DNA of 64,000 nt from Candidatus Moraniibacteriota bacterium (GCA_049303905.1 JBAQNP010000020.1:5584-69583), one strand, 5' to 3'; numbered from the stretch's first letter, positions 3,155 to 60,521 are shown. The notes: generated from the sequence alone by a model not told the origin. Numbers and translations: made by a program.

Positions 3155-3180
3155 GATGATTTAGTTTCTTTATTTTTCTA

Positions 3181-3245
3181 AATTAACTCACGGTCTAATT
3201 TTCTGGCTAAAAATTTTCCTCAATCGACGGCTGGAGGAAGGGACT
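3181..3245 (+). repeat. Copy 1 of a recurrent hairpin motif (loop core CTCAATCGACGGCTGG) in the tgt 5' region
   Basis: Shares aattaactc...ttctggctaaaaattttcctcaatcgacggctgg with copies at 3297, 4596, 14690 and 60375. Confidence 0.5.
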
Positions 3246-3296
3246 GAAGATTGTTATTAAAAATTAAAAAATAACTCGAAAGCGTATTTTAATAAT

Positions 3297-3340
3297 CAGA
3301 AATTTTCCCTCAATCGACGGCGGATAAGGAAAATTTCTGA
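3297..3340 (+). repeat. Copy 2 of the hairpin motif: 11-bp stem agaaattttcc/ggaaaatttct with 19-nt loop ctcaatcgacggcggataa
   Basis: Perfect inverted repeat around the conserved loop. Itself enclosed by a 19-bp long-range inverted repeat (3246-3265 / 3373-3391). Confidence 0.55.
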
Positions 3341-3414
3341 ATAAAATACACTTTCTCAAACAGGATTTTTTAAATTTTAATAACAATCTTCTTGTAAGTA
3401 TAGATAGAAAAAGT

Positions 3415-4590
3415 ATGTTTGAGATAATTTCAAAAAATCCCGCCTCGACTCGCGGAGACGGTCACTCGTCGATGCGAGGCGGGAGCAATAGTCGAGTTGG
3501 AAAAATTAGACTTAAAAACGGAGAAGTTAACACTCCGTTTTTTATGCCTGATGCGACGCGTGGTTTTGTGCGATCAATTGACAATGAAATTTTAAATTCC
3601 ATAGGTCTCGAAGCGATTCTCATTAACACCTATCATTTGTTTTTAAATCCTGGAATGAAAATAATCAAAGAAGCGGGTGATGCTCATGGCTTTATGAATT
3701 GGTCGCGTCCACTGCTTTCTGATTCGGGTGGATATCAGGTTTTTTCGCTTATTCATAAAAATCCGCGTCTTGGGAAGATTACTGATAATGAGGTGATTTT
3801 TAAATCTCCCCATAGTGGAGAAAAACATATTTTAACACCAGAAATTGCCATTCAAATTCAGTTTGATTTGGGGGTGGACATGATGGTTTGTTTGGATGAT
3901 CCACCACCGAATGATTATTCAAAAGATAAAATTGAAAAAGCAGTTTTGCGGACTATTCGTTGGGCAAAGAGGTGTAAAGATGAATATGAAAAACAAATTC
4001 AAGAAAGAAAAATATCTGAAAAAAATCGACCGTTAATTTTTGGGGTTATTCAGGGCGGGGAATATTTAGATCTTAGAAAACATTGTACCGAGGAACTAGT
4101 GAAAATCGGGTTCGATGGTTATGGTTTTGGAGCGAGACATATCGATGTTGATGGAAATTTCATGGAAGAAGTGGTGCGAGAAACCGCTGGCTTTATCCCA
4201 GAAAATTCATTGCGTTTTGCTTTGGGAGTTGGTACACCGGAGGATATTGTGAAATGTTTTTCATATGGCTGGGATATGTTTGATTGTGTGATTCCTACTA
4301 GAGAAGGGCGACATGGGCGTTTGTTTTTGCGAAAAGGAAAGAGTCTCACTGAATATGAAACAATTAATATTAATAACGGAAAATATAAAAATGATTTTTC
4401 GCGAATTGACGAGAATTGTGATTGTATGTTATGTAAGAATCACACTCGAGCCTATTTGCACCATCTTTTTTCTTCCAAAGAAATGCTTGGGATGAGACTC
4501 TCTGCAATTCATAATTTGAAGTTTTATGTGGATTTACTGGCGTCACTCCGAAATGGCGTAAATTCAAAAAAAATTGAACTCAAACCTTAA
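3415..4590 (+). CDS. tgt: Queuine tRNA-ribosyltransferase
   Basis: 391 aa with the DSGGYQ motif and a C-terminal CDCMLC zinc site. The N-terminus carries a 15-aa insertion encoded by a GC-rich palindrome. Confidence 0.9.
   Translation: MFEIISKNPASTRGDGHSSMRGGSNSRVGKIRLKNGEVNTPFFMPDATRGFVRSIDNEILNSIGLEAILINTYHLFLNPGMKIIKEAGDAHGFMNWSRPLLSDSGGYQVFSLIHKNPRLGKITDNEVIFKSPHSGEKHILTPEIAIQIQFDLGVDMMVCLDDPPPNDYSKDKIEKAVLRTIRWAKRCKDEYEKQIQERKISEKNRPLIFGVIQGGEYLDLRKHCTEELVKIGFDGYGFGARHIDVDGNFMEEVVRETAGFIPENSLRFALGVGTPEDIVKCFSYGWDMFDCVIPTREGRHGRLFLRKGKSLTEYETININNGKYKNDFSRIDENCDCMLCKNHTRAYLHHLFSSKEMLGMRLSAIHNLKFYVDLLASLRNGVNSKKIELKP
3439..3483 (+). repeat. GC-rich palindromic element family 1, 45 nt, in-frame inside tgt (encodes PASTRGDGHSSMRGG)
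   Basis: cccgcctcgactcgcggagacggtcactcgtcgatgcgaggcggg has terminal inverted repeats cccgcctcg/cgaggcggg. It is the reverse-orientation match of the copies at 37026, 29539 and 62138. Confidence 0.75.
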
Positions 4591-4595
4591 ATTTT

Positions 4596-4650
4596 CTTGC
4601 CAAAATTTTTTTGACAAGCAACGGCGGAACAAAATAATTTTGGAGAAAAT
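4596..4650 (+). repeat. Copy 4 of the hairpin motif (ttgccaaaatttttttgacaagcaacggcggaacaaaataattttgg) between tgt and the U32 peptidase gene
   Basis: Conserved ACGGCGG core between inverted AAAATTTT arms. Also reads as TTGACA-17-ATAATT, a sigma70-like promoter. Confidence 0.5.
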
Positions 4651-4712
4651 TTAGGTTTTCAAACAGTAATTTTTCTCGAATTTACGCCATTTCTCCGTTT
4701 TATAAAAAAATA

Positions 4713-6080
4713 ATGAAAAATTCAATTAATAATAAAAAAATAGAATTACTGGCTCCAGCTGGCTTGCCTCGCCAAAGCAAAAAAAAGACAAAAGTCGAAT
4801 TGCTTGCGCCGGCGGGCAGTATTGAAAAAATGAAATATGCCTTTGCCTATGGCGCGGACGCGGTTTATTTTGGTGTGCCGGATTTTTCTCTTCGTGTAAG
4901 GATTAATAAATTTAGCGAAAAAGATATTTTGGAAGCTGTCTCCTATGCTCATAAGTTAGGCAAAAAAATATATGTGACACTTAATATTTATGCGCATAAT
5001 CAACATTTGGAAAAAGTAGAAAAACATTTGAAGTTTCTTAGGAATATAAAAATCGACGGAATTATCGCTAGTGATCCGGGGATAATAAATTTGGTCAAAA
5101 AATATTTGCCGAAAGTGGACATCCATCTTTCCACTCAAGCTAATGCGACCAATTTTGAGGCGGTGAAATTTTGGAAAAGTTTGGGAGTGAAAAGAATAAT
5201 TTTGGCGCGCGAAGTGACGCTCAAGGAAATTGAAGAAATCGGAAAAAAAGTGAAAGGTATTGAGCTGGAGTATTTTGTTCACGGGGCAATGTGTATGAGT
5301 TATTCCGGTAGGTGTATTCTTTCTAAATGGATAAATGACAAGAGTGCAAACCTTGGAGATTGTACTCAGCCTTGCAGGTGGAAATATCATGAAGCATGTA
5401 GCATGAAACATGAAACAAAAGAAATATCTTTGATAGACAATCAAAAAAGATTCGAGATGGATATTGAAGAGGATCAGCACGGGACATATTTTTTTAATAG
5501 TTACGATATGAATCTGATTTCTCACATGGAAGAATTGGTGAAGGCCGGAATAAGTTCAATGAAAATTGAAGGACGAGCCAAAAGCGTCTATTATGTTGCG
5601 GTAGTGACACGGGCATATAGAAAAGTTTTGGACGCAATTTTGAATAAAAAAAATAGCTCAAAGGAAATTAGGAAAATAATTTCAGAACAAAAGAAAGAGT
5701 TGGATAATTTGGTTCATCGCGGTTATTCCACAGGTTTTCTTTTAGGCAACGAGCCGGCGCATAATTTTGAAGGAAAAATACAAAAGGGAAATTGGGAATT
5801 TGTTGGAGAGGTCATGGGCGTAAATGCAGGGACAGGTTTAAAACCTGTCCGTACTAATATTATGAAAATTCATAATGCAGTTTTGAGGCAGGATAAAATC
5901 GAAGCTATTACGCCGGAGAAAAATATTACACTCAAAATTAAAAAGATATTTAACGATCAGAAAAAAGAAATTTCTGAGGCTCACGGTGGGCATGAAAAAT
6001 TATATTACTTTGAGTTTGATAAGGTTTTGCCGGAGGGGAGTTTGATTAGGAAAAAAATAATTCTACAAAATACAAATTAA
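4713..6080 (+). CDS. Peptidase U32 family protein (PrtC/RlhA-like)
   Basis: 455 aa with ELLAPAG...AVYFG and EYFVHGAMCMSYSGRC motifs typical of U32. The ELLAPAG motif is duplicated at the N-terminus, and the CDS holds an MKHET element at 5388-5421. Confidence 0.8.
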   Translation: MKNSINNKKIELLAPAGLPRQSKKKTKVELLAPAGSIEKMKYAFAYGADAVYFGVPDFSLRVRINKFSEKDILEAVSYAHKLGKKIYVTLNIYAHNQHLEKVEKHLKFLRNIKIDGIIASDPGIINLVKKYLPKVDIHLSTQANATNFEAVKFWKSLGVKRIILAREVTLKEIEEIGKKVKGIELEYFVHGAMCMSYSGRCILSKWINDKSANLGDCTQPCRWKYHEACSMKHETKEISLIDNQKRFEMDIEEDQHGTYFFNSYDMNLISHMEELVKAGISSMKIEGRAKSVYYVAVVTRAYRKVLDAILNKKNSSKEIRKIISEQKKELDNLVHRGYSTGFLLGNEPAHNFEGKIQKGNWEFVGEVMGVNAGTGLKPVRTNIMKIHNAVLRQDKIEAITPEKNITLKIKKIFNDQKKEISEAHGGHEKLYYFEFDKVLPEGSLIRKKIILQNTN

Positions 6081-6108: not shown

Positions 6109-6492
6109 ATGAATAATGATGGGGTAATTTATAAAGAATTGAGTTATAAAATAATGGGTGCTATATTTGAAGTATATAATGAGTTGGGGTATGGCTTTAA
6201 AGAAAGATATTATGAAGATGCTATTGCAAAGGAGTTTGATAGGATAAAGTTGGTTTATAAAAGACAATTACCATATAAATTAAAATATAAAAATGAAATA
6301 ATTGGTATTTATAGATTTGATTTTTTGGTTGACGATAAAATTATTATAGAATTAAAACAAGGCGATTTTTATTCAAAGCAAAATTTCACGCAAGCTTTGC
6401 AATATCTGAAGGCAACAAAATTAAAATTAGCAATTTTGATAAATATAACACAAAAAGGAGTAAAATTTAAAAGAATATTAAACATTAAATAG
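6109..6492 (+). CDS. GxxExxY family protein (PD-(D/E)xK nuclease superfamily)
   Basis: 127 aa. The start YKELSYKIMGAIFEVYNELGYGFKERYYEDA and FDFLVDDKIIIELK match the GxxExxY family pattern. Flanked by inverted tacaaat/atttgta word arrays. Confidence 0.75.
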   Translation: MNNDGVIYKELSYKIMGAIFEVYNELGYGFKERYYEDAIAKEFDRIKLVYKRQLPYKLKYKNEIIGIYRFDFLVDDKIIIELKQGDFYSKQNFTQALQYLKATKLKLAILINITQKGVKFKRILNIK

Positions 6493-8239: not shown

Positions 8240-8863
8240 ATGAAAAATAAAAAAACTATACCAAAACAAAAATCACTTTCAATTATTCCGGACGAAAGAA
8301 TTGTAGGAAAAATATATCTGATTCGAGGAGAAAAGGTGATGTTTGATCGTGATTTAGCGGAGCTTTATGAAGTGGAAACAAAAGCATTGAACAGAGCGGT
8401 TAAAAGAAATATAAAAAGATTCCCAGCTGATTTTATGTTTCAGTTGGATAAAAATGAATCTGAAATATTTTCAAGGTACCATTCTGGCACCTTGAAAGAG
8501 GATGCTAACTTGAAGTCACAAATTGTGACTTCAAGAGATGACAAAAACTTGAGGTACCAAATTGGCACTTCAAGGTCACAAATTGTGACCTTGAAGAAAG
8601 GGCAGAATATAAAGTATCGCCCTTATGTTTTTACCGAACAAGGTGTAGCCATGCTGTCAGCTGTTTTGAAGAGTGAGAGAGCAATTGAAGTAAGCATCCA
8701 AATTGTTCGAGTTTTTATAAAAATGAAAAAATTATTGACTACTCATAAAGAACTGCGAGAAAAAATTGAGAAAATGGAAAAATCGAACAAAGAAAATTTC
8801 ACCCCGTTAGAAATTTTTAAAAATAAATATTATGAAATGGTGGTACATTTATGTTTTGCTTAG
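8240..8863 (+). CDS. ORF6N (KilA-N-like) domain protein
   Basis: 207 aa. N-terminus IRGEKVMFDRDLAELYEVETKALNRAVKRNIKRFPADFMFQL is the canonical ORF6N signature, and the C-terminal YVFTEQGVAMLSAVLKSERAIEVSIQIVRVF is conserved. Has an internal duplicated SQIVT segment. Confidence 0.75.
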   Translation: MKNKKTIPKQKSLSIIPDERIVGKIYLIRGEKVMFDRDLAELYEVETKALNRAVKRNIKRFPADFMFQLDKNESEIFSRYHSGTLKEDANLKSQIVTSRDDKNLRYQIGTSRSQIVTLKKGQNIKYRPYVFTEQGVAMLSAVLKSERAIEVSIQIVRVFIKMKKLLTTHKELREKIEKMEKSNKENFTPLEIFKNKYYEMVVHLCFA

Positions 8864-9098
8864 TCTAAAGGATAATAAATGGTATACTGGATATACTGGT
8901 AATCTAAAAAATAGAATTGCAAAACATAATTCTGGAGAAGTATTTTCTACAAAAAACAGGAAGCCATTTAAACTGATATATTCAGAAGCTTGTTTAAATA
9001 AATTAGACGCCCAAGCTCGAGAAAGATATTTAAAATCAGGAATGGGCAAAAGATATCTTAGGAATAGATTAAGATGTTATTTTGATAAAAATGATTAA
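8832..9098 (+). CDS. GIY-YIG nuclease domain protein, small stand-alone
   Basis: 88 aa. YIYVLLS...KWYTGYTGNLKNRIAKHN matches the GIY-YIG motif. Overlaps the 3' end of the ORF6N gene by 32 nt. Confidence 0.7.
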   Translation: MKWWYIYVLLSLKDNKWYTGYTGNLKNRIAKHNSGEVFSTKNRKPFKLIYSEACLNKLDAQARERYLKSGMGKRYLRNRLRCYFDKND

Positions 9099-9162: not shown

Positions 9163-12100
9163 ATGAAAAAGAAACTGAACGCATTGGGTTTAGAGATAAA
9201 GATTAAAATTAAAAATTACTCCAGAATGTTTCTAAAATCAAAAATAAAATTACTAATATTTTTCTTCTCAATAACTGTGTTATTGGTTTTGACGTCGAAT
9301 GATGCAAGTGCTTATACCTGTACTTGGACCGGAACAACTTCTACTGCTTGGGCGATAGCCACCAACTGGTCTGGGTGTAATTCAACTATTCCACAAACGA
9401 CGGATGATGTGGTGATTAATGTTGCTTCAGCCAATCAACCAATCCTTGATCTCATAGGAGGGAAAACAATAAATTCTCTTTCGATCGGATCGACACTAGC
9501 TTCAACCCTTACTCTTTCCAATGGTTTAGTAGATGTTAATGTTAATAAATTAACCATCACTAATAATCTAACTATTGGAGGTTCTGGCACAATTACCAGC
9601 ACCGCCAACACCACCGCCCAAACTCACAGTGTGAATATGTCGGTGGGAGGGAATGTGGGTATTGAGAGTGGGGGGAAGATTGATGTGACGGGGAAGGGGT
9701 TGAGTGGAGGAGCGGGGGGGGCTGTATATACTAGTGGTTCACCCGGTTACCTTATTAATGGTGGCGGTGGCAGCGGTGGCGGTTATGGCGGTTATGGTGG
9801 CAGTTGCGGTGGCGGTGGCGGTTATGGAGGGGCAGGAGGAGGTGGCACTGGCGGAGCAGGCGGAATAGTACATGATCAAGTTGATAATTCTCACCCAACT
9901 GTTCTTGGCTCTGGAGGTGGTGGTGGGTCAGGAGATGGAGCTGGTCATGCTGGGAGTGCAGGTGGCAAAGGGGGTGGATCAATAAAATTAAATGTGCTAG
10001 GAATACTAACTTTGAATTCCGGTAGTGGGATATACTCCAATGGAAGCAATGGAATCAACGGAGGAGCTAGTGGCGGAGGCGGAGGAGGCGCTGGCTCTGG
10101 TGGTTCAATTTGGATCCAAGCCGGAACAATTACTGGCACAGGAACGGTTCGGGCTAATGGAGGAACAGGAGGAACTGTCACTGCTTTTAGTATAACAGCA
10201 ATAGGTGGTGGTGGAGGAGCAGGTGGAAGAATTGCAATTTCAAGCACGAGAGGATTAACAATAACAGCTGCTGGTGGTCTCGGATACGATAGTCTATATG
10301 GCGGAACCGGCACAATATACTACAACGCTTCCGGAATATACACTTCCGAAGTTTTGGATTTTTCTGGAGCTAGAGATTTTACTACATCTGACATTACTAA
10401 ATCAGAACCTGGGACTTCTACAGTAGTAGTTTCACTTCACGGTGGTGACACCGATAATCCAAATGACTGGGCAGACAATTGGACAGTTATAAATGACAAC
10501 GACGACATCTCAGTTTTTGATAATTTCAGATATTTGCAATACAAAGTAGAATTTTCCTTTACTGGTTTGTCGACTGAAGATAAACCTAGTTTGCAAGATA
10601 TTTCAATAAACTATAACGCTTATCTTGACAAAACCCTCACCTCCTCAGTATACAATTCCAATTCCGACGCTAACTTAATCGGAGGAATATCTTGGGATGA
10701 AACTCTAAGCTCAAACACTAACATTAAATTCCAAATCCAAACTTCCGCCGACGGAGTCACTAATTGGTCAGGATGGTTTGGACCAGACGAAACTGACACT
10801 ACATATTTTGACGAAACTGATTCCCCTGACTTTTGCACAAAAACTGATTCAATTGTCACTTGCACAGTAGACGCTATCCCCTCAGCTTTCAAAGACGGAG
10901 CCAATGATCAATACTACCAATACAAAGCCTATCTAGATACTACCGATGGACTGGCTACTCCAACTCTAAATTCTGTCACCGTCACCTACGTAGTCAACGC
11001 CAACCCGGAAATTGAAGCCAGTCAAACTACCGCTGTCCCGGATGCCAATCAAAGAGTTAATGTTTCATATAACGTCCGAGACACCGACTCAGTTTCCGGC
11101 ACCATCACTCCAAGTTTTGAATATTCCCTAGATGGCGGATCTAGTTGGGTATCCATAACTTCCGGTTGTCTTGGTGCTACTGACTTAGCTGCTAAAACAG
11201 TCAATACCACCGAAGAAACTAAAAACAATTATATAACTTACACTGCCGTTTGGACTCCTGCTTGTGAAGCTGGTATCTCCACCACTACTTATGAAATCGA
11301 CGTTCAAATCCGAGTGAGAGCTGATGATGGTCAAGCCGCTAATCGCTATGGGTATGGAACAACAGAAAATTTCACCCTCGACACCAAAGCACCAATTCCC
11401 GACACCAAATCCATTATTATCTCCGCCAGAAAAACTACTGACAACCTCGCTCTCAATGCTGTCGATGATTCAACCAAACAAATGCGAGTAGGATTAGAAT
11501 CAGATCTATCTGACGGAACTTGGATAGACTACAACACTCTAGCTACAATTGATATTACCGACAACCCTGAAACTGCCTATGTTCAATTTCGAGATATCTT
11601 TGGCAACACTTCCGAAATTGAGAGTGTCACTGCTCCTGTTGCTCCTCAAAGCCTGATGATTCAAGACACTTCCAACACTCTTCTTGCCGAACCCGAATAC
11701 CGACTCTTCATAGCTTGGCAAGTACTCGACAATGACCAATACGGAGCATTATTTGATAAATATGTCATCTACCGCAGTGCCGACAATGGGGCTACCTATA
11801 CAGAAGTTCACACTATTTCCGACATCAGCACCAACTATTGGGCTGACAATACTGTAGTAGGAGAAGCCACTTACTATTATCGCGTCACTCACAAAAACGA
11901 CTACGGCATTGAAAGTTTTGGCAATGAATCCGCCTACAGCGACCCAGTCTATGGCAATGCCAACGGAGTTGAAGATGCCGGCGAAGGTGGAGGAGGAACA
12001 TCATCTGTTCCACCGGTTATTTCCAATGTTGCTATTCCCGAAGATTCCATCTATTCCACCCAAGCCACTATCACTTGGGACACTGACACTCTCTCTGACT

Positions 12101-14652
12101 CAACAGTCAAATACAGCGCTGATGCCGGAGTCTTTACTACCGGTAAAGTGATAACCACTTTACGAAACAACGGCACTCCCTACGGACCGCACACGGTTAC
12201 TCTTACCAATCTCAGTCCTAATACTACCTACTATTTCCAAGTTCAATCGGCTGATCAAAATGACAACGAAGCTACTAAACCCCAATCTGGTGATGATGAG
12301 TATCCAGACGGCTACAGTTTCACTACCGATCCTGGGCCACCAATTCATAGTGCTTGGACCACTCGAGTGACCAATCATAGCGCCACCATTGCTTGGAGCA
12401 CTGCCGGCACTCCTCCGGAAACATCCGTACCTTCTAATTCTGTGGTCACTTATTCCAAAAACTTTGACTTAGGCGAACCAACCACCATTGGAGGTTCTGA
12501 TGACTTAGTGACTTATCACGAAGTAACTATTAATGATCTTGATCAAGGAACTCTCTATTATTACCAAGTTCAATCCAGTGACGGCAACTATACTTCAATT
12601 GGAAAAAATGGTGACAGCTATTTCAGTTTCACCACCGACATTGACAACGTCGCCCCAACAATTACTTTCGATCCCGACACCGATATTACTAAAACTGACA
12701 CTACCGCCAGAGTTTCTTGGACAACCTCTAGTGAATCAGCTAGATCAACTCTGGAATATGGTACTGATACTGATTATGATTTAGGTACGCTCACCAATGC
12801 TAATTACAATACTAATCACATTTTTGATTTAGAAGATCTTACTCCAGAAACTACTTACTATATCCGACTTACCTCGACTGATATTAATGACAATGCGACT
12901 GTAGTAAGTGGAAATAGTTTTACTACTTTGGCGATAGCTGATGAGAGTGGGCCGACTATTTCAGACGTGGTAGTGAGTGATCTTAAGTATAATGAAGCGA
13001 CAGTTAGTTGGGAGACAGACACAGCCAGTGATTCTCGAGTGGAATATATTACAGCTACAGGCGGGGATTTTAGTGAGGCACCCTTTGCGGGAATAGCTAC
13101 ATCAAAAAACAACGCATCCGATCTTGGTCTTCACTCTGTAATTCTCTCTGGCCTCAACTCCATCACCACCTACTATTTCCAAGTTAAATCCACTGATCAA
13201 GATGGTAACACTTCTACATTAAAAGAAGGAACCAATGGCTACACCTTCACCACCACCTCCCCAACCACCGACTCTGACTCCAACGGCGAAGGAGATCAAC
13301 TCACCGACATCATGTCTCAAATCCAAGATATGATCGACAACTACTATTTCACCGAAGCCGAAATCCAAGACGCTCTCTCCGGACTCTATTCCATCTCCAT
13401 AACCAGTAGTGGCCCATCTGTAGATATCACTGACACCACCGCTACTTTCACCTGGACCACTAACCGACCAGCTATCGGCAAGATTTACTATTGGCAAGAC
13501 ACTGACAACGAGGACACGGCCGTAAGCCAAGCCGAAAACATCACTGCGGCTAGAACTGACCATGAAATCATAATTAAAAACCTCAACGCTAACACCAAGT
13601 ATAATTTCTACGCTTACTCCGAAGGACTCCTAGGTACCACCACCCAATCAGAAAACAAATCTTTCTCCACGGAAGACACCGCCAGTCTCTCTGGCATCTC
13701 CATTTCCAACCTTACTCTTAACTCCGCCGATATCTCTTGGACCACCACTGGCTCCATTGACTCTTCCCAACTTGAATACGGCGAATCAATTAAATATGGC
13801 AACGAAAACAAAGGTAAAACAGACGGCAATCTCCATACTGTCAATTTAACCAACCTCAAAGAAAACACCACTTACCACCTAAGAGTCACTGCTACCGACT
13901 CTGACGGTCAAACCCTCACCAGTGACGACTACTCCTTCACCACCACTTCTCTCCCCGTAATCTCCAACGTTACCATCAAAGATATCCAAATCGAATCCGC
14001 CACCATTAATTGGCAAACTAACGTCAAAACAGACTCCCGAGTAGAATTCAAAAAAGAAAACCAAGACCAAGGGACTACCACCGGTAAACTCGAAGCAGTG
14101 ACTGACCACTCCTTCACTCTTACCAACCTTTTCCCTGGAACTAGATATACTTTCAAAGTCTCTTCCAAAGACACCTTCAACAATGAATCTAGTAGTGAAG
14201 AACAATCTTTCACTACCAACGAAGATCTCAACGCTCCCCAAATCACCAACGTTAAATCTGACACCACCGTCTTTCCTGGTAAAGAAGCTCAAATCCAAAC
14301 CATCATTAGTTGGAATACTGACAAAGATTCTAATTCTATCCTGGCTTACCGCGAAGGAGTCGAAAAAGACCCTAACCTAATTGACCAACTTAAAAACCCT
14401 GACATAACTAAAATTGATAACTGGAAACTAATCAAAAAACAAGATCTCACCAAAAACCATCTCTTTGTCCTGACTGATCTAAAACCTGCCAGTGTCTATC
14501 AATTCAGAACTGCTTCATATGACAAACACAACAATGTCTCAGTCTCAGAAAACTATTCCTTACTCACCCCCACTAAACAACAATCCGTCCTAGATCTCAT
14601 CATCCAAAACTTTGAATCTACCTTTGGATGGGTGAAGAGGATTGGGAATTAA
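9163..14652 (+). CDS. Giant cell-surface protein (1829 aa) with N-terminal TM/signal, a glycine-rich (GGxGG)n module and about 10 tandem Fn3-like domains
   Basis: N-terminal hydrophobic segment. Residues about 190-330 are Gly repeats (GGGGSGGGYGGYGG...). Repeated units of about 90 aa follow the pattern ATITW.T...S.V.YG......LT.L.P.T.YYFQV.S.D..N. C3-rich codon usage is unlike neighbouring genes. Reverse-strand Pro-rich ORFs here are artefacts. Confidence 0.8.
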   Translation: MKKKLNALGLEIKIKIKNYSRMFLKSKIKLLIFFFSITVLLVLTSNDASAYTCTWTGTTSTAWAIATNWSGCNSTIPQTTDDVVINVASANQPILDLIGGKTINSLSIGSTLASTLTLSNGLVDVNVNKLTITNNLTIGGSGTITSTANTTAQTHSVNMSVGGNVGIESGGKIDVTGKGLSGGAGGAVYTSGSPGYLINGGGGSGGGYGGYGGSCGGGGGYGGAGGGGTGGAGGIVHDQVDNSHPTVLGSGGGGGSGDGAGHAGSAGGKGGGSIKLNVLGILTLNSGSGIYSNGSNGINGGASGGGGGGAGSGGSIWIQAGTITGTGTVRANGGTGGTVTAFSITAIGGGGGAGGRIAISSTRGLTITAAGGLGYDSLYGGTGTIYYNASGIYTSEVLDFSGARDFTTSDITKSEPGTSTVVVSLHGGDTDNPNDWADNWTVINDNDDISVFDNFRYLQYKVEFSFTGLSTEDKPSLQDISINYNAYLDKTLTSSVYNSNSDANLIGGISWDETLSSNTNIKFQIQTSADGVTNWSGWFGPDETDTTYFDETDSPDFCTKTDSIVTCTVDAIPSAFKDGANDQYYQYKAYLDTTDGLATPTLNSVTVTYVVNANPEIEASQTTAVPDANQRVNVSYNVRDTDSVSGTITPSFEYSLDGGSSWVSITSGCLGATDLAAKTVNTTEETKNNYITYTAVWTPACEAGISTTTYEIDVQIRVRADDGQAANRYGYGTTENFTLDTKAPIPDTKSIIISARKTTDNLALNAVDDSTKQMRVGLESDLSDGTWIDYNTLATIDITDNPETAYVQFRDIFGNTSEIESVTAPVAPQSLMIQDTSNTLLAEPEYRLFIAWQVLDNDQYGALFDKYVIYRSADNGATYTEVHTISDISTNYWADNTVVGEATYYYRVTHKNDYGIESFGNESAYSDPVYGNANGVEDAGEGGGGTSSVPPVISNVAIPEDSIYSTQATITWDTDTLSDSTVKYSADAGVFTTGKVITTLRNNGTPYGPHTVTLTNLSPNTTYYFQVQSADQNDNEATKPQSGDDEYPDGYSFTTDPGPPIHSAWTTRVTNHSATIAWSTAGTPPETSVPSNSVVTYSKNFDLGEPTTIGGSDDLVTYHEVTINDLDQGTLYYYQVQSSDGNYTSIGKNGDSYFSFTTDIDNVAPTITFDPDTDITKTDTTARVSWTTSSESARSTLEYGTDTDYDLGTLTNANYNTNHIFDLEDLTPETTYYIRLTSTDINDNATVVSGNSFTTLAIADESGPTISDVVVSDLKYNEATVSWETDTASDSRVEYITATGGDFSEAPFAGIATSKNNASDLGLHSVILSGLNSITTYYFQVKSTDQDGNTSTLKEGTNGYTFTTTSPTTDSDSNGEGDQLTDIMSQIQDMIDNYYFTEAEIQDALSGLYSISITSSGPSVDITDTTATFTWTTNRPAIGKIYYWQDTDNEDTAVSQAENITAARTDHEIIIKNLNANTKYNFYAYSEGLLGTTTQSENKSFSTEDTASLSGISISNLTLNSADISWTTTGSIDSSQLEYGESIKYGNENKGKTDGNLHTVNLTNLKENTTYHLRVTATDSDGQTLTSDDYSFTTTSLPVISNVTIKDIQIESATINWQTNVKTDSRVEFKKENQDQGTTTGKLEAVTDHSFTLTNLFPGTRYTFKVSSKDTFNNESSSEEQSFTTNEDLNAPQITNVKSDTTVFPGKEAQIQTIISWNTDKDSNSILAYREGVEKDPNLIDQLKNPDITKIDNWKLIKKQDLTKNHLFVLTDLKPASVYQFRTASYDKHNNVSVSENYSLLTPTKQQSVLDLIIQNFESTFGWVKRIGN

Positions 14653-14689
14653 GGAGAGAACTAAAAACAAAAAAATATTCTTGAAATTA

Positions 14690-14755
14690 ACTCGCCCTTG
14701 ATTTTTATAGCTAAAAATATCCCTCAATCAACGGCGGGAAAGGATATTTTAAGAT
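14690..14755 (+). repeat. Copy 3 of the hairpin motif (aattaactcgcccttgatttttatagctaaaaatatccctcaatcaacggcgggaaaggatatttt)
   Basis: 9-bp stem aaaatatcc/ggatatttt around the 19-nt loop ctcaatcaacggcgggaaa. The upstream arm aattaactc...gctaaaaat is shared with copy 1. Confidence 0.55.
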
Positions 14756-15027
14756 AAAAATCTAGGGCTCAAACAAGAATTTCGGCGAATATTTTTTGTT
14801 TTTAGTGGAGAGGAGGGAGAGAGGCGAGATATGAAGCATGAAAAAAGAGGGGTTCAATTTTATCGATAAAATTACAAAAAGGCTTATATAAAGCAAAATA
14901 GAATAACGGCTATTGCGTAAAAAACTGCCACATGGTAGGATATTTAGGTCGTTTTGAAAACTGGGTGGCAGGGAGGTTTAGCAAAAGCTTAGGCTAAAAA
15001 GGGGACATTCCAGACAAACTGAAAATA

Positions 15028-15711: not shown

Positions 15712-15720
15712 TGGGTGAAA

Positions 15721-15861
15721 CTTATTCAATTAAATATGCCGAACGCGCTTCGGCGCGGAAGCATTCTAGTGATAAAAAGTCTCGACATGCTTGTAATAAA
15801 TAATCTATGTGAATAATTTTTAAGCGCCTCCGTAAGCTCTCGACATATTTAATTGAATAAG
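15721..15861 (+). repeat. MITE-like element A: 141 bp bounded by perfect 17-bp terminal inverted repeats CTTATTCAATTAAATAT/ATATTTAATTGAATAAG
   Basis: Interior carries the hairpin cgcgcttcggcgcg and the block ttaagcgcctccgtaagctctcgacat, shared with element B at 32655-32807. Confidence 0.7.
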
Positions 15862-15920
15862 TTCCAGATAAAAAATAAACCTCAGTGGTTTATTTTTTAA
15901 TTTTAGTGTAAAATAATAGT

Positions 15921-16862
15921 ATGAATTGGATAGGTATTGCTATTATTGCATATTTTCTTTTGGCACTGGAAATTGTTCTGGACAAATTTTTGCTTTCTTC
16001 CAAGCGCGTTTCTCATCCTGCTATCTATGCTTTCTATTCTGGAACGATGGGGATGTTTGTAATTCTTCTAATTCCTTTTGGTTTTCATTGGATAGGTTTA
16101 TCCAAAATTATCTTGAGTTTTATCGCAGGAATCGTTTTCATTTACGGGATGCTTTCCCTTTTTTGGGCAATTAAAAGAGGAGAGGCGAGTCGAGTACTCC
16201 CTATTGTGGGCGCGGTTGTGCCGATTGTATCCTTTTTTCTAGCTATAATTTTTCTGGGAGAAAATTTAGGTCTCAGAGGTATTCTTGGTATCAGTGCTTT
16301 GATTTTTGGTGGAATATTAATTTCTTTTAATTTAGCTAAGAATAGAGCAAGAATATTTTTTGAGGGTTTTCGTGCTTCAATTTTAGCTGGATTTCTTTTA
16401 GCTGTTTCAACAATTATTATCAAAGCACTTTATAATGAAGACAGTTTTATAAATGTTTTTGTCTGGACAAGAACAGGCGCATTTTTGGGAGTATTGAGTT
16501 TTTTCTTGATTCCTATTTGGCGAAAACCAATTTTAGAGTCGCTATTAAAATTTAAAAAATCTGAAAAAGAAGAAAAAAAATCTGGCGCTTCTTTTGTTCT
16601 AGCTAAAACACTCGGCGGAAGCGGATCATTTCTCAAAGAAAATGCAGTGTCAACATCCTTGGCAAGTGTGACCGTAGTGAATGCCTTGGTCTCAGTAGAG
16701 TATGTTTTTATTTTTATTTTGAGTATTATCTTCTCTGCCTGGATGCCAAAAATAATGCGAGAAGAAAAAGATTTTAAGATAATAGTTCAAAAAATTATAG
16801 CTATTGCTATTATTACTCTCGGATTAATTTTAGTTTCTTCACCCTATGGAGTACGGGCATAG
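15921..16862 (+). CDS. Integral membrane protein, DMT/EamA-like transporter fold
   Basis: 313 aa, about 10 predicted TM helices, two-half organisation. Confidence 0.6.
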   Translation: MNWIGIAIIAYFLLALEIVLDKFLLSSKRVSHPAIYAFYSGTMGMFVILLIPFGFHWIGLSKIILSFIAGIVFIYGMLSLFWAIKRGEASRVLPIVGAVVPIVSFFLAIIFLGENLGLRGILGISALIFGGILISFNLAKNRARIFFEGFRASILAGFLLAVSTIIIKALYNEDSFINVFVWTRTGAFLGVLSFFLIPIWRKPILESLLKFKKSEKEEKKSGASFVLAKTLGGSGSFLKENAVSTSLASVTVVNALVSVEYVFIFILSIIFSAWMPKIMREEKDFKIIVQKIIAIAIITLGLILVSSPYGVRA

Positions 16863-23906: not shown

Positions 23907-24295
23907 TTGTGGAGATGATGGGAATTGAACCCATGTCCAAAGCTATTCATCTAAAATCCTCTACAAGCTTAGTTAGTTTGTTTAGGTTGGAAGTTATGAA
24001 CTAACAAAATATTCCAACCTTTTTTCTAGTTTAATTTTACTAAATTTGCCTAGAAAATGCAATTTTAGCTATCCTAATGTATAACACCGAGCTCTATCTA
24101 TTAGGAGTGGATAGTTCGATGGCCTCGGCAATTAAGCCAAAGCGTAGGCAAAGTTAGCTGAGAAAGCTTGCGCAATCGCAGTTTTTGCTTTTGAAAATAA
24201 GTTTGCACTTATTGATTTGGTAAAATTTTAACGAGTGATTACCATTCTCGGCTTGCATATTTTAAACGTACAACTTGTCGAAACCAAACATCCCC
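23907..24295 (-). ncRNA. ssrA: tmRNA (SsrA), one-piece
   Basis: The 5' end GGGGATGTTTGGTTTCGACAAG (reverse complement of 24274-24295) matches the tmRNA 5' consensus. The 3' end has T-arm atggg-ttcaatt-cccat and acceptor strand catctcc pairing with ggggatg, including a G3:U wobble. An internal frame reads GCA AAA ACT GCG ATT GCG CAA GCT TTC TCA GCT AAC TTT GCC TAC GCT TTG GCT TAA (tag ending ...ANFAYALA). Sits directly downstream of smpB. Confidence 0.8.
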
Positions 24296-24297: not shown

Positions 24298-24744
24298 TTA
24301 TAAATTTTTGAGGATTCGTCTCATTCCTCTCTCGTCTTCTCTTTTCTTGATTTTATCTCGTTTGTCGTATTCCTTTTTGCCTTTTCCGAGACCAAATTCC
24401 AGCTTGATGAGACGTCTTTTAGTATATAATTTAATTGGCACTAATGTCAAGCCTTGGGTGCGAGCTTTGCCAATTAAATGCTTTATTTCTGATTTCTTGA
24501 GCAGAAGCTTTCTTGGGCGAGTCGGATTATGATTGTCGAGCTTGCCAGCGTGAATATAGGGCGGAACATGGGCATTAGTTAAATACAATTCATTGCCATG
24601 GATTGTCACAAAAGACTCTTTGAGGCTCACATGCTTGGTTTTTATCGATTTTACCTCATGACCAAAAAGCTCAATCCCGGCTTCATAGTTTTCCAGAATC
24701 GCATAATCGAAATTCGCGCGCTTGTTTATAGCTAAAATACTCAT
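24298..24744 (-). CDS. smpB: SsrA-binding protein SmpB
   Basis: 148 aa, ...NKRANFDYAILENYEAGIEL.G.EVKS... is typical of SmpB. Confidence 0.9.
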   Translation of the reverse strand: MSILAINKRANFDYAILENYEAGIELFGHEVKSIKTKHVSLKESFVTIHGNELYLTNAHVPPYIHAGKLDNHNPTRPRKLLLKKSEIKHLIGKARTQGLTLVPIKLYTKRRLIKLEFGLGKGKKEYDKRDKIKKREDERGMRRILKNL

Positions 24745-27724: not shown

Positions 27725-29976
27725 ATTTTTTCTGAAAACTTTTTAAGGGAATCAGCTATTAGCGGATGCTCTTTTAACTTGGGATCGTTTTCTAATAAAT
27801 ATGCGGCTTCGGCACGGGCGAATTTAATGAGTTTTGTATTGCCTAAATTTTCCATAGCAATATCAGGCAAGCCTGATTGAATGGTGCCAAAGAATTGTCC
27901 TGGACCACGTAATTTCAAATCATGCTCAGAAATTTCAAAACCATCATTGGTTTTTTCCATTATTCTTAAACGCGTAGGGACTAAGCCCCCAATTGGGGAC
28001 TTAGTCCCTGAATTGGCAAACAAAAAACAATAAGATTGCTCTTTTCCTCGTCCAACTCGTCCGCGAAACTGATGCAATTGGGTGAGACCAAATCTCTCGG
28101 CGTTTTCAATGACTATTACAGTTGCATTGGGAATATCGATGCCAACTTCTACTACAGATGTAGAAACTAAAATATCAAAATTTTTATTTTTAAAATCTTC
28201 CATCACTTCTTCTTTTTCTTTAGCTTTCATTTTCCCATGAAGAAGCCCAAGCTTAAATTCAGAAAATATAACTTGGGATAATCTCTCGTGTTCCTCTTTG
28301 ACGGCTTTGACATCGATCATACTTTCAGAAAGTGATTCCTCGACTAATGGCAAAATAACAAAAGCTTGTCGACCTTTTTTTATTTCACTGCGAATGAAAT
28401 CATAGACTTTTTCTCGATCATTCGGGGTAATTATTTTAGTAATAATATTTTTTCTATTTTTAGGCATTTCATCTAAAATTGACAAATCTAAACTGCCAAA
28501 ATAGGCGATGGCCAGCGTTCGTGGAATTGGCGTAGCGGTCATAGTTAAAAGATGGGGGATAACTTTTTTATTCCCATCATCGATATTCATAGTTTCACTT
28601 TGGAGTGTTGCGCGTTGATTGACGCCAAAACGATGCTGTTCATCGATAATCACCAGTGCTAGATTTTTAAATCGAACATCTTTTTGAATTAGCGCGTGAG
28701 TGCCGATAACTAACTGCACTTCATCTGTTTGGATAGATGATAGCAACTCAGAGCGAGTTGTGTTTTTTATAGTTCGAGTATAATTTTTAATTTTCAATTT
28801 GCAATTTTCAATCAATTTTAAATTTTCAATTTTCAAATCTTGATTTACTTTTGGTTCTGAAATTAATTTATATGAGCTAGTTAACAAAGCTATTTTTATA
28901 TTGTAATTTTTAAAAATATCACAAAAACTTTCAAAATGTTGGCGAGCCAAGACTTCTGTTGGCGCCATAAGAGCCGTTTGATATCCGGCGGAAATTGTTT
29001 GTAGTGCGGAAATGGCGGAAACAATTGTTTTTCCAGAACCAACATCACCATTAAGCAGTCGATTCATGGGGCATGGTCTTTCTAAATCTTTCAAAATTTC
29101 GAAAGTTGCCTTTCTTTGAACGTCAGTGAGCTTGAAGGGTAATTCGAGCGTGAATTTCTTAATTAATTTTTCATCAAATTTTATTTTGTTAGAATCTTTT
29201 TCTTTCCAGTTTTTTCTAATTTCCAAAGTTCTGATTTGCACTAGAAACATTTCTTGAAAGGCCATTCTTTTTTGGGCGCGAATAAGCTTTTCCATATCAT
29301 CAGGGAAATGAATTTGCGAGAGGGTAGTATAGATATCGGATAGATTATATTTTTTTCGAATTTCAATAGACAAAATATCAGGTATATTTTTAGCTAAAGG
29401 CAAGAGGGTTTTTATCTGCCAGCGAATCCATTTGGAAGTTATGCCGGAAGTTTCACTGTAGATTGGGACGAGTCTTCCAGTGTTAGTGGCATCGCGAGTG
29501 GATTTTTCAAAGGCAGGATTACTCATAGAAAAATATTTCCCGCCTCGCGCCTGCCTCGCCGAGTCAAGGCGGGTCGACGAGCAGTTGTCTCCGCGAGTCG
29601 AGGCGGGCCCACTCATTCCAAGTTTTCCAGAAAATCTTGCGGTGGAGCCAATGGGAAAATTTTCTAATATATAAGGCTGATTAAACCATACAGCCTTGAG
29701 AAGATTTCCATTTTGATCCTCGAGGACGATTTCCGTGATGGTCATTTTTCGACGAAAGAGTCGATTGTTTTTGGCTTTGATAATTTTGCCTTCGACTGTA
29801 ATAGCTTGCCCAACGAAATCATTTGAAAGCGAAACGGTTTTGGAAAAATCATCATAACGAAAAGGAAGATATAATAAAAGATCTTTGATTGTAAGAAGTC
29901 CGAGTTTTTCCAAAACACGGATATATTTAGGTGTAATGCGGGGGACAGATTTTAGTGAAGTGTTTATGTCTAGCAT
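27712..29976 (-). CDS. recG: ATP-dependent DNA helicase RecG
   Basis: 754 aa with the wedge domain and helicase motifs (DVGSGKT, DEQHRFGV). Contains in-frame insertions: a nested family 1 GC palindrome (29539-29608) and an AT-rich attttcaa repeat block (28783-28838). Confidence 0.9.
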   Translation of the reverse strand: MLDINTSLKSVPRITPKYIRVLEKLGLLTIKDLLLYLPFRYDDFSKTVSLSNDFVGQAITVEGKIIKAKNNRLFRRKMTITEIVLEDQNGNLLKAVWFNQPYILENFPIGSTARFSGKLGMSGPASTRGDNCSSTRLDSARQARGGKYFSMSNPAFEKSTRDATNTGRLVPIYSETSGITSKWIRWQIKTLLPLAKNIPDILSIEIRKKYNLSDIYTTLSQIHFPDDMEKLIRAQKRMAFQEMFLVQIRTLEIRKNWKEKDSNKIKFDEKLIKKFTLELPFKLTDVQRKATFEILKDLERPCPMNRLLNGDVGSGKTIVSAISALQTISAGYQTALMAPTEVLARQHFESFCDIFKNYNIKIALLTSSYKLISEPKVNQDLKIENLKLIENCKLKIKNYTRTIKNTTRSELLSSIQTDEVQLVIGTHALIQKDVRFKNLALVIIDEQHRFGVNQRATLQSETMNIDDGNKKVIPHLLTMTATPIPRTLAIAYFGSLDLSILDEMPKNRKNIITKIITPNDREKVYDFIRSEIKKGRQAFVILPLVEESLSESMIDVKAVKEEHERLSQVIFSEFKLGLLHGKMKAKEKEEVMEDFKNKNFDILVSTSVVEVGIDIPNATVIVIENAERFGLTQLHQFRGRVGRGKEQSYCFLFANSGTKSPIGGLVPTRLRIMEKTNDGFEISEHDLKLRGPGQFFGTIQSGLPDIAMENLGNTKLIKFARAEAAYLLENDPKLKEHPLIADSLKKFSEKIHLE
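29539..29608 (+). repeat. Family 1 GC-rich palindromic element, nested/duplicated copy, in-frame in recG
   Basis: cccgcctcgcg + cctgcctcgccgagtcaaggcggg + tcgacgagcagttgtctccgcgagtcgaggcggg. On the - strand it encodes PASTRGDNCSSTRLDSARQARGG. Confidence 0.75.
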
Positions 29977-31307: not shown

Positions 31308-31371
31308 TGTCATCCTGAATTTATTTCAGGATCTAAACAATAGAGATGCTGAAAGCAAGTTCAGCATGACA
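31308..31371 (+). repeat. Double-hairpin element family 2 copy (intergenic, between the nif3-like and M16 genes)
   Basis: tgtcatcctgaatttatttcaggatc...gagatgctgaaagcaagttcagcatgaca. Confidence 0.7.
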
Positions 31372-31376
31372 ATATT

Positions 31377-32651: not shown

Positions 32652-32654
32652 GAT

Positions 32655-32807: not shown

Positions 32808-32827
32808 AAGAAAGGAAATAAAATTTC

Positions 32828-58686: not shown

Positions 58687-60369
58687 TCATAAATTTTTCA
58701 CCATATAGCTATCTTTCAACTTATATCCTAATTTTCGATAATATCCACGCACGCCGACGCCTGAAATTACTACAATTTTATCAAGACGGAATTCTTTTTT
58801 GGCTATTTTTTCAGCCTCTAGGATTAGTTTTTTTCCAAGGCCGATGTGTTGAGGAGAGAGCGTATCTTTTTGATTGATCTGATTCATTTTGCCATAAGTA
58901 TGTACTTCCCTTATTATGGCAGAATTTTTCAGAACATTCGGGACTATACTTTTTTCGTTATTTATTCTTAGGCGTAAAAGCGCAAAAAGTTTAGACCTCA
59001 CCCCAGCCCTCTCCTTATTAAGGAGAGGGAGCGTTGAATACTCCAGGAATATTTCTTGGCCATCGCTAGCAGGATAATCAATACGATTTAGAATTATTTT
59101 TTCTTTGAGATTATAATCCGAACGAACTTCGCGACAACGAATGCAAGGACAGGTGGATTTTTTGGCAATTAGTTGGCGAAGATTAGAAATCTTTGGTCCG
59201 GCGATGATGGAACTTTCTGGCACATCGCGCACTAGGCGAGAGATGCGAACATAAGGTGGAATGATTTCATTTTTGACACGCAGGATAAATTTTTCAAAAC
59301 TTTTGTCGGTGAGGGCTTTATATTTTCCAGCTTTCCATATTTTATACAGTGGACTTTGACGGATAACGACAGTCGGATAAATCTTGAGCATATCTGGTTG
59401 GAAAGAGGAACTACTAAAAAGTTCTTGAAACATTTGAAAATCTTTTTTGATGCTAGAGCCAAGTAGCCCTGGCATAATATGATAGTTAATTTTGAAACCA
59501 AAATCTTTGAGCAGTTTTGTAGCTGTGACAGTTTTTTGAACGTTGTGTCCGCGTTTATTTTTTTCTAATACATCATTAAAAATACTTTGCACGCCAAGTT
59601 CAACTCGAGTGCATCCAAGATTTCTAAAATTAATTAGTTCCTCTACATTGATATAATCCGGTCGCGTTTCTAGTGTTAGCCCAACTATTCTATGCTTAGC
59701 CGTCTCATTCTTCCTTTGCTCTGTTTTTAAATTTTTTTCGGTTTTGTTATATGTTTCATGTTTCATGTTGCATGACTTAGGGTAGTCATTGCAAGCCCGA
59801 AAACAGTCTAAGATAAATTTATTCTGGTAGGCTTTTGGCAAATAGGAAAAGGTTCCGCCCATTACGATTAATTCAATCTTGTCAGTTTTGTGACCATTAA
59901 GTTCGAGAGCGTGAATTCTTCTTTGTACTTGAAGATAGGGATCAAACTTTGCGGAAATGGCGCGCATCACAGCTGGTTCATTTGAAAGATAGCTTTTAGG
60001 CATTTCTTTTTCGGTGGGGCAATAGATGCATTTTCCTGGACAAGGATAACTTTTAGTAAGCACTGCCACCACGGCTACACCAGAATCAGTGCGAATTTTT
60101 TTGCTAAAAAGACAATTTTCTAAATCCGGATTACGTTTGATTTTTTTCTCGAGAATCATTTTTTCATAAAGTTCGCGAATATCAGCATTGGTTGGAAGGG
60201 GTAATCCCAGCTCCTTGCAAATCTCTTTTTTCCGTTTCAAAAAAAGCGCAGGACTGGAAATCTTGGTTTGGGTTGCTAGTTTTATGAAATTGTCATAGGA
60301 TTTAAGCATGGGGGTGGGGTGGGTGAATTTAATTTTTGTAATTTGGAAAAAATAAACTTGAACGCGCAT
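58687..60369 (-). CDS. Elp3-like radical SAM + GNAT protein (tRNA wobble-uridine modification family)
   Basis: CPGKCIYCPTEKEM radical-SAM cluster region and a C-terminal GNAT domain. The likely true start is the internal MLKSYDNF at 60309. Contains an MKHET insertion (59741-59777). Confidence 0.8.
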   Translation of the reverse strand: MRVQVYFFQITKIKFTHPTPMLKSYDNFIKLATQTKISSPALFLKRKKEICKELGLPLPTNADIRELYEKMILEKKIKRNPDLENCLFSKKIRTDSGVAVVAVLTKSYPCPGKCIYCPTEKEMPKSYLSNEPAVMRAISAKFDPYLQVQRRIHALELNGHKTDKIELIVMGGTFSYLPKAYQNKFILDCFRACNDYPKSCNMKHETYNKTEKNLKTEQRKNETAKHRIVGLTLETRPDYINVEELINFRNLGCTRVELGVQSIFNDVLEKNKRGHNVQKTVTATKLLKDFGFKINYHIMPGLLGSSIKKDFQMFQELFSSSSFQPDMLKIYPTVVIRQSPLYKIWKAGKYKALTDKSFEKFILRVKNEIIPPYVRISRLVRDVPESSIIAGPKISNLRQLIAKKSTCPCIRCREVRSDYNLKEKIILNRIDYPASDGQEIFLEYSTLPLLNKERAGVRSKLFALLRLRINNEKSIVPNVLKNSAIIREVHTYGKMNQINQKDTLSPQHIGLGKKLILEAEKIAKKEFRLDKIVVISGVGVRGYYRKLGYKLKDSYMVKNL

Positions 60370-60374
60370 TTTTT

Positions 60375-60415
60375 TGCTAAAATTTTTCTAAGTCAACGGC
60401 TGGTACGAAAAATTT
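60375..60415 (+). repeat. Copy 5 of the hairpin motif (gctaaaatttttctaagtcaacggctggtacgaaaaattttag) in the divergent promoter region
   Basis: 11-bp stem ctaaaattttt/aaaaattttag around a loop containing TCAACGGCTGG. Confidence 0.55.
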
Positions 60416-60521
60416 TAGAAAAAATCCGCATTCTTCGAACAACAATTTTTTCCAAATTACAAAAATTAAATTAACAATAGAGAGGGAGAGGAGAAAATTT
60501 TAATCATTCAATTTATTTATT

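Follow-up and report, generated by a model that had tools for sequence, protein, structure and literature searches.

The 64,000-nucleotide stretch of DNA from Candidatus Moraniibacteriota bacterium analysed here (the window) carries members of a family of dispersed, rod-like hairpins, which is confined to one clade of Moranbacteria. The complete unit is a rod of about 145 nt (144-153 nt in the window) and thus about three times as long as the element first described for this DNA. In its general nature, the family belongs among the dispersed intergenic palindromic repeats; as far as the searched libraries and the literature show, its organisation is new, combining conserved loops, co-varying stems, an outer stem private to each locus, and folding of the bottom strand. 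Selection maintains a single-stranded fold, most likely that of the bottom strand, which is complementary to the mRNA of the flanking genes.

A first-pass annotation of the window had reported five copies of an intergenic hairpin with a conserved loop, and this claim was borne out. The core CRACGGCKG occurs at positions 3225, 3315, 4619, 14729, and 60394, in all five cases on the + strand and between genes; only 0.50 matches are expected in the 64-kb window, and none of 100 shuffled sequences reached five. An unfiltered covariance-model scan of the window found no further, more diverged copies. In the following, E+ designates the strand on which AACTC, the loop, and TCRAACAR succeed each other (the orientation of the first-pass annotation), and E- its reverse complement. 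The copies and their parts are:

3180..3236, + strand: copy 1, a truncated half comprising an A-rich remnant of the 5' arm, AACTC, the inner 5' arm, and the apical loop ending CGACGGCTGG
3246..3391, + strand: copy 2, complete, with its outer stem at 3246-3272 / 3365-3391
3273-3277 and 3356-3364, + strand: internal loop of copy 2, AACTC and TCAAACAGG, respectively
3278-3308 / 3328-3355, + strand: inner stem of copy 2, with the apical loop at 3309-3327
4550..4693, + strand: copy 3, complete, with AACTC at 4577-4581, the core CAACGGCGG at 4619-4627, and TCAAACAG at 4659-4666
14660..14806, + strand: copy 4, complete, with AACTC at 14689-14693, the core at 14729-14737, and TCAAACAA at 14769-14776
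60323..60475, + strand: copy 5, complete, with AACTT at 60355-60359, the core CAACGGCTG at 60394-60402, and TCGAACAA at 60435-60442

Aligning the copies together with their flanks revealed AACTC (AACTT in copy 5) about 35 nt 5' of the core and TCRAACAR about 32 nt 3' of it, and folding showed that the stretch between these two motifs forms one long imperfect hairpin. AACTC and TCRAACAR constitute the two sides of a conserved asymmetric internal loop, with 5 nt on one side and 8-9 nt on the other. The outer stem of about 21-27 bp is present in every complete copy, each locus having its own sequence; the inner stem of about 29 bp is AT-rich, contains a small internal loop as well as a fixed 2-nt bulge, and carries a conserved apical loop of 16-19 nt. 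Read on the bottom strand, the internal loop (CTGTTTGAG) and the apical loop (TTGATTGAG) finish in an identical 9-nt motif where loop meets helix. The 19-bp long-range inverted repeat which had been noted around copy 2 is genuine and grows to 27 bp with one mismatch (3246-3272 / 3365-3391), and the 145-nt unit considered possible there is found, at 144-153 nt, in every complete copy.

Copies 2 to 5 have covariance-model scores of 100.9, 104.9, 104.5, and 89.8 bits, respectively; for copy 2 the fold has a z-score of -5.9. Copy 3 has orthologues in the related loci L001, L053, and L060, and copy 4, which begins 8 nt past the stop codon of a 1829-aa surface protein with fn3 repeats, has one in L104. 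Copy 5 takes up most of the divergent spacer between a radical-SAM gene (- strand) and a methyltransferase gene (+ strand). The earlier statement that the arms differ from copy to copy while staying complementary is correct for these complete copies and wrong for copy 1, which lacks the 3' arm and is not a hairpin: its fold is non-significant (z-score -0.8), its model score is only 17 bits for a partial match at 3208-3256, and it is absent from the orthologous spacer in L002 and L060. About 35 nt of common upstream sequence do exist and do follow surface-protein genes, as had been described; they had been assigned to the wrong pair, the owners being the copies at 3181 and 14690. Likewise, distances of 60-280 nt to the + strand genes have to be replaced by about 21, 20, 220, and 47 nt, when start codons are measured from the base of the full hairpin.

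Covariation was assessed with 27-37 copies from a dozen genomes. In an alignment of 27 sequences, 22 of the 32 modelled pairs of the inner stem have changed on both sides (133 cells), and none of 500 shuffles gave a value as high. Standard pairs account for 91.9% of the cells, compared with 76.4% after shuffling (again reached by 0 of 500 shuffles), and pairing falls to 61-71% when the partners are slid by one column. As the outer stems are unalignable between loci, they were tested by comparing the pairing energy of a copy's own arms with that of arms taken from other copies: own arms pair at -14.9 ± 6.4 kcal/mol, arms of other copies at -4.7 ± 3.0 kcal/mol, and in 22 of 38 copies no foreign arm pairs better than the copy's own. 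The interpretation of compensatory variation as the mark of a selected hairpin is therefore strongly supported; it holds with the enlarged set of copies, and the elements are not spread equally over both strands but are almost always co-oriented with the flanking genes. In addition, the central 8 bp of the inner stem always read AAAA(T/A)TTT, without any G-C pair, and invariant pairs exist (A-U in 27 of 27, U-A in 37 of 37 sequences). Pairs that never change, together with the fixed central 8 bp, indicate a constraint on sequence beyond pairing.

The architecture recurs in all of the 38 distinct copies gathered. The covariance-model scan proposed by the first-pass annotation was performed with a model built from 27 copies and added a few diverged members in related loci. 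All 38 copies reside in low-GC assemblies of the CPR type, mostly labelled Moranbacteria or Parcubacteria group. Among contigs representing one genome per species, a three-part pattern identified 24 true elements in 12 assemblies with a GC content of 0.32-0.44 and up to five copies apiece; nine of these assemblies are labelled Moranbacteria, Parcubacteria group, or 'bacterium', and three 'Bdellovibrionales'. The same pattern gave about 20 elements, many of them duplicates, in metagenome contigs. Its 30 matches in viral contigs were all due to chance and comprised no hairpin, and ten matches in high-GC proteobacterial and other contigs were discarded, as they do not fold. The median identity between copies is 65%, and no near-identical paralogues occur inside one genome. 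With Rfam 15, only the tmRNA and two tRNAs of the window reached the gathering threshold and the element was unmatched; nothing was found in four related loci, and at permissive E-values merely long plant microRNA precursors appeared far below threshold (e.g. 30.8 bits versus a threshold of 195). No paper describing the rod element was found in the literature searched.

With respect to its neighbours, the element occupies the space from one gene's stop codon to the start codon of the next. In most cases, the end of the upstream ORF falls in a range from 44 nt inside the unit to 27 nt ahead of it (in a dozen copies this ORF terminates inside the 5' arm), and the next start codon follows 4-50 nt beyond it. 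The downstream genes are unrelated to each other and belong to the core set: tgt, U32 peptidase, rpoC, trigger factor (tig), glyA, fhs, folD, lgt, rlmN, and others. Both tgt and folD have an element on either side, and one copy sits between rpoB and rpoC. In about 31 of the 32 cases that could be scored, the downstream gene points the same way as E+, and the upstream gene does so in 31 of 36. L062 departs clearly from this rule: a copy that is intact (114.6 bits) lies there just upstream of gyrA, inverted relative to gyrA and to the gene before it. In 34 of 38 loci, the G-rich strand is the one that carries E+; the orientation in L062 fits replication, whereas L058, whose element follows genes located on the C-rich strand, contradicts a link to replication. 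Where the spacer is divergent (copy 5 and L058), nearly all of the non-coding DNA belongs to the element.

Several further features of these surroundings were recorded. Purine-rich tracts (GGAGAGGAGGGAGAGAGG and AGAGAGGGAGAGGAG) follow copies 4 and 5 at 14808-14826 and 60480-60494, and G runs ending in TC (GGGGGTC) are located 5' of many copies, just past the upstream stop codon (L059, L074, L002, L060, and 60311-60322 in the window). The genes parA and parB at the end of the window (61334-63136) suggest an origin-proximal region; the tmRNA lies beside smpB on the - strand (23907-24295 and 24301-24744). The gene of the 1829-aa surface protein, which is built of fn3 / purple-acid-phosphatase-N repeats (9163-14652), shows a GC skew of -0.61 at third codon positions, the values of all other + strand genes being +0.08 to +0.51. 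Small genes of selfish appearance, encoding a PD-(D/E)XK nuclease (PDDEXK_3), an ORF6N-domain protein, and a GIY-YIG nuclease, stand among the housekeeping genes at 6109-6489, 8240-8860, and 8832-9095; none of them adjoins a rod element.

Orthologous sites allow one to follow the fate of individual units. The L002 orthologue of copy 2 differs from it at 2 positions in about 150 nt, both belonging to one compensatory change from G-C to A-T in the outer stem, although the flanking genes are only 81% identical. At the same site upstream of tgt, L060 has kept the outer stem almost unchanged, and its inner stem differs at many positions which are still paired. The inner hairpin of L060 (5114-5223, compared with 3262-3374 in the window) is instead similar to those found elsewhere (GAATaCG/CGCATTC, shared with L051 and copy 5), which hints at an exchange of inner modules between copies. 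In L001 and L003, the element is absent and only 2 nt separate the stop codon of the surface-protein gene from the start codon of tgt. In the spacer between tgt and the U32 peptidase gene, copy 3 is kept in L001, L053, and L060; L003 has a different small hairpin repeat there, and L002 a GIY-YIG gene flanked by that repeat. The unit is gained or lost as a whole; the idea that the inner hairpin was inserted into an older outer one was rejected, since at the two orthologous sites checked the entire unit is either present or absent. Once present, it is more strongly constrained than the neighbouring proteins. The occupation of whole spacers by an element next to core genes, its conservation above that of coding neighbours, and more than 20 co-varying pairs together show that it is under real selection.

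Copy 3 also contributes to a protein: the final 11 residues of tgt, along with its stop codon (4588-4590), are specified by the 5' outer arm and the first part of the inner stem, and in relatives without copy 3, tgt ends earlier. The C-terminal tail of tgt (..NSKKIELKP; 4555-4590) resembles the N-terminus of the U32 peptidase, MKNSINNKKIELLAP (4713-4760), and the corresponding DNA reads AAAAAAATTGAACT and AAAAAAATAGAATT, respectively; a coincidence is possible. KKIEL was considered as a target duplication and dismissed, because the similar stretches do not adjoin the ends of the element.

The two strands of the element are not equivalent. E- folds better in 33 of 38 copies, with a mean gain of 5.7 kcal/mol; when the sequences are clustered at 85% identity, its advantage holds in 28 of 31 groups (Wilcoxon 3e-6). 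Among the isolated transition mismatches of the stems, 24 read A·C on E+ and so correspond to G·U on E-, and only 6 read G·U on E+; counted per group, the ratio is 15 to 1 (sign test 5e-4). As the copies are related, these statistics are not fully independent. In L039 and L041, one-base bulges of the sense strand vanish as G·U pairs on the other strand, and the energies improve from -36.2 to -49.8 kcal/mol and from -42.2 to -60.6 kcal/mol, respectively. The TGTCATCCTGAA hairpin family, which was intended as a control for the wobble asymmetry, provided only 10 copies. Mutation bias does not explain the asymmetry: third codon positions of the + strand of the window are rich in G and T regardless of gene orientation, which is the usual signature of a leading strand, and this bias should produce G·T on E+, the opposite of the A·C mismatches seen. 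A repair bias of unknown kind acting on hairpins could mimic it. The type of mismatch and the better folding of E- argue against a riboregulator in the 5'-UTR and contradict the earlier proposal that the downstream gene's transcript contains it as an RNA element.

We tentatively favour the reading that the element is a folded bottom-strand site, made of DNA or of antisense RNA, which is bound through its two conserved loops; we regard this as quite possible without calling it probable. Taken separately, template-strand DNA is a rather unlikely identity for the folded molecule and an antisense transcript a distinctly unlikely one. On this account, the element would act as a folded single strand, and the two 9-nt junction motifs would be the docking sites for one sequence-specific protein or a dimer. 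Such a putative partner was not found among the 59 ORFs of the window by means of Pfam scans. At a guess, the role might be a strand-specific DNA transaction, or the element might serve antisense transcription as a polar barrier or mark. By analogy, the geometry would be that of attC sites, REP elements, and plasmid single-strand origins and would be unlike that of a leader riboswitch. The earlier alternative of a protein-bound inverted repeat in DNA is compatible with this reading as a folded single strand and fails as a duplex operator, since one such operator cannot have arms which differ between copies. We know of no process that routinely exposes the template strand of transcription (the leading-strand template) as single-stranded DNA, and no conserved promoter directed antisense, in particular no conserved -10 box, was detected in the flanks of the copies.

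The most serious rival, although doubtful, is a sense hairpin in intercistronic mRNA. A duplex of more than 50 bp could be a processing or stability signal, e.g. an RNase III site uncoupling the cistrons in the manner of phage T7 early mRNA, and an RNA-binding protein would recognise the conserved loops. Transcription of the element in sense orientation is certain, because most downstream start codons are only 4-50 nt away and one copy is situated between rpoB and rpoC; hence a sense RNA hairpin exists and could be what matters. Co-orientation with both neighbours, the position inside operons, squeezed in after one cistron's stop codon and before the start codon of the next (rpoB-rpoC, around tgt, around folD), and the L058 element, which tracks its genes even on the C-rich strand, all agree with this explanation, and the sense RNA folds well, too (-31 to -57 kcal/mol, with z-scores down to -9). 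However, the imperfect pairs are of the wrong kind for a sense RNA, and in the dozen copies where the upstream ORF ends within the 5' arm, ribosomes would open the structure. Moreover, the L062 element is intact despite its inverted orientation, and pairing of RNA alone does not require a central 8-bp segment free of G-C pairs.

A selfish miniature transposable element without any single-strand function, whose palindrome represents terminal inverted repeats and whose copies are decaying relics, is highly improbable. It would agree with the presence and absence of the unit at orthologous sites (2 nt in L001 and L003 where the window and L002 are filled), with the truncated copies (copy 1, and 4147-4252 in L053), with the tail supplied to tgt, and with the occurrence of other small palindromic repeats in the same genomes. 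But the outer arms are not common to the copies, so that terminal repeats shared by the whole family do not exist, and a comparison of filled (window, L002, L060) and empty (L001, L003) sites upstream of tgt, this site alone, showed no target-site duplication. A median identity of 65% without near-identical paralogues in a genome, orthologues which are far better conserved than the flanking genes and change in a compensatory manner, and the lack of a transposase gene in the window are also at variance with this scenario.

A promoter or operator in duplex DNA, with the motifs serving as -35/-10-like boxes or as a repressor site and the palindrome as a dimer site, is very unlikely. A TTGACA-spacer-ATAATT arrangement had been noted in the first-pass annotation; it is present, albeit in the copy at 4596-4650 (copy 3) and not in copy 4, and our scan reads it as TTGACA-16-AATAAT on the + strand, confined to that loop class. 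Further matches on the - strand are TTGAGG-16-TAAAAT in copy 2 and TTGACT-17-AAAAAT in copy 5, and in two loop classes the bottom strand has TTGAYT and, 17-18 nt further on, nAWWWT, whose A is invariant; where copy 5 and L058 occupy divergent spacers, a promoter must overlap the element, as there is little other non-coding DNA. However, the spacing fails in the TGACAA loop class (15 or 19 nt). Half of all copies have TCG instead of TTG, and a consensus scan found no promoter-like site in L058. The sigma-70-like matches are copy-specific and lie on different strands; the idea of a promoter-embedded operator derives from a single copy-specific TTGACA, and no sigma-70 arrangement of constant spacing exists across the loop classes. 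Arms that differ and yet are complementary cannot be the duplex site of one protein, a duplex site predicts no strand asymmetry, and most copies lie inside operons, where a promoter is unnecessary.

Comparison with known systems helps to delimit the family, which is not a member of attC, REP, ERIC/Correia, TIGR arrays, or intrinsic terminators. The functional form of integron attC sites is the folded bottom strand. The rod element shares with attC the imperfect palindrome of similar length, the conservation of structure over stem sequence, the position immediately behind a stop codon and close ahead of the following ORF in uniform orientation with the genes, and the favoured bottom strand. In contrast to attC, the complementary R'' (RYYYAAC) and R' (GTTRRRY) boxes are missing at its base: the AAC of AACTC is present and unpaired, TCRAACAR on the 3' side is followed by AATTT, and GTTRRRY occurs on neither strand. 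Further differences are that the conserved parts of the rod are unpaired loops and that its flanks are syntenic housekeeping genes (tgt, rpoC, gyrA, tig, folD) instead of cassettes, the copies being dispersed and forming no array. No integrase or recombinase domain was detected in the 59 ORFs of the window.

The ERIC/IRU and Correia (NEMIS) elements of proteobacteria are likewise imperfect palindromes of 100-150 bp in transcribed intergenic regions, are variably present at orthologous sites, and can outdo neighbouring genes in conservation. They are conserved along the whole stem or in terminal repeats, whereas the rod element is so only in its loops and the A4T4 core; its stems co-vary, each locus has a private outer stem, and no target duplication was seen. 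The ssoA-type single-strand origins of rolling-circle plasmids and Frpo, the single-stranded DNA promoter of F, are long, strand- and orientation-specific DNA hairpins with variable stems, and only a motif in the terminal loop and a single unpaired region in the interior are conserved. In Frpo, the strand that folds serves as template for the genes downstream. Unlike the rod element, which is chromosomal and located beside housekeeping genes, they occur once or a few times per plasmid and act on DNA that is truly single-stranded during transfer or rolling-circle replication; moreover, their loop motifs (e.g. TAGCGT) are absent from it. The early-gene RNase III hairpins of T7 are repeated, intercistronic, equipped with an internal loop, and co-oriented with genes, too; however, they are shorter and act as sense RNA, whereas the wobble pattern of the rod element points to the other strand. 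REP sequences are palindromes of 20-40 nt, in contrast to about 145 nt for the rod, which lacks their conserved 5' GTAG; no Y1 transposase (RAYT) is encoded by the window ORFs.

An intrinsic terminator was rejected: consensus scans recognise no copy as one, the stems are rich in A and T, the loop measures 16-19 nt, and the outer stem has no T run behind it. In the bottom-strand reading, GAGTT and then a T-rich arm come after the inner stem, which is at best a weak terminator; L052 and L075 lack the arm. The loops recall the K-turn, box C/D, parS half-site, and RfaH ops motifs, but none of these similarities holds across the loop classes, and they were dismissed as well. The tigRNAs of TIGR-Tas systems consist of variable 9-nt spacers framed by box C and box D, arranged in arrays beside a tas gene (PMC12045711; bioRxiv 10.64898/2026.09.09.750476). 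Common features are the occurrence in Patescibacteria and a hairpin with divergent stems and unpaired segments on both sides, and in one CPR clade the loop contains an extended hairpin (PMC12045711; bioRxiv 10.64898/2026.09.09.750476). In contrast, the unpaired segments of the rod are short (5 and 8-9 nt) and conserved, and its copies are solitary. The 14-nt box intervals of TIGR were found on neither strand in either side of the internal loop; in the apical loop, they occur in 6 of 38 copies, which is the chance level, and on one strand only. A Nop-domain protein (tas) is not encoded in the window.

Other repeats and leaders were observed in the same DNA. A second family consists of a G+C-rich palindromic unit of 45-48 nt (CCCGCCTCGCrTCGACGAGy..GTCTCCGCGAGTCGAGGCGGG), which is also found behind the rod element in L037, L056, and L066. 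The unit in tgt is an in-frame insertion absent from tgt of L002 and L060, and the family recalls the Rickettsia palindromic elements, which insert into coding sequence. A third family is composite (TGTCATCCTGAAyTTrTTTCAGGATC ... GATCCyGAAACAAGTTCrGGATGACA) and located right after stop codons; it fills the tgt-U32 peptidase spacer of L003, where the window has copy 3, and two of its members flank the GIY-YIG endonuclease gene of L002. The members are:

3439-3486: second family, inside tgt
29540-29607: second family, two units in tandem inside recG
37023-37067: second family, inside tatD
62135-62179: second family, in the parA-parB spacer
31308-31395, 40896-40985, and 53703-53790, + strand: third family
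23037 and 37011, - strand: third family
11178-11245 in L003; 11168 and 11529 in L002: third family

Two leaders, at 15712-15925 and 32652-32832, upstream of genes for an EamA transporter and an AI-2E transporter, respectively, have about 150 nt in common at 77% identity. Both carry a CGCGCTTCGGCGCG hairpin and the block TTAAGCGCCTCCGTAAGCTCTC, and neither has a match in Rfam; the pair is possibly a cis-regulatory RNA.

A chromosomal promoter formed by a hairpin of the template strand is a long shot among the conceivable functions. The AT-rich palindrome would extrude, and the template strand would then offer the -35-like TTGAYT in the apical loop, the -10-like nAWWWT just beyond the fixed 2-nt bulge, and, about 7 bp further, the internal loop as a pre-opened bubble, such that RNA polymerase would begin sense transcription of the downstream gene at UCAAACAG. 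The underlying motif pair exists in the two loop classes mentioned above and not in the TGACAA class. This would be the logic of F-plasmid Frpo or of the early promoters of phage N4, here applied genome-wide in a CPR bacterium. If true, it would account for co-orientation, proximity to start codons, bottom-strand folding, the AT-only core, and the conserved unpaired motifs.

Genomes of CPR bacteria (Patescibacteria) are tiny and tightly packed. The element occupies whole spacers beside rpoC, gyrA, tig, tgt, folD, and glyA. To our knowledge, almost nothing is known about the non-coding DNA of CPR bacteria and about the expression and upkeep of their long co-directional gene arrays. The element is oriented with the genes and folds on the strand against them, which raises the question of whether it is a folded-DNA site, an antisense RNA, or a sense RNA subject to an unexplained substitution bias. 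In any case, it is a ready marker for a subclade of Moranbacteria and a handle for finding the protein that binds it.
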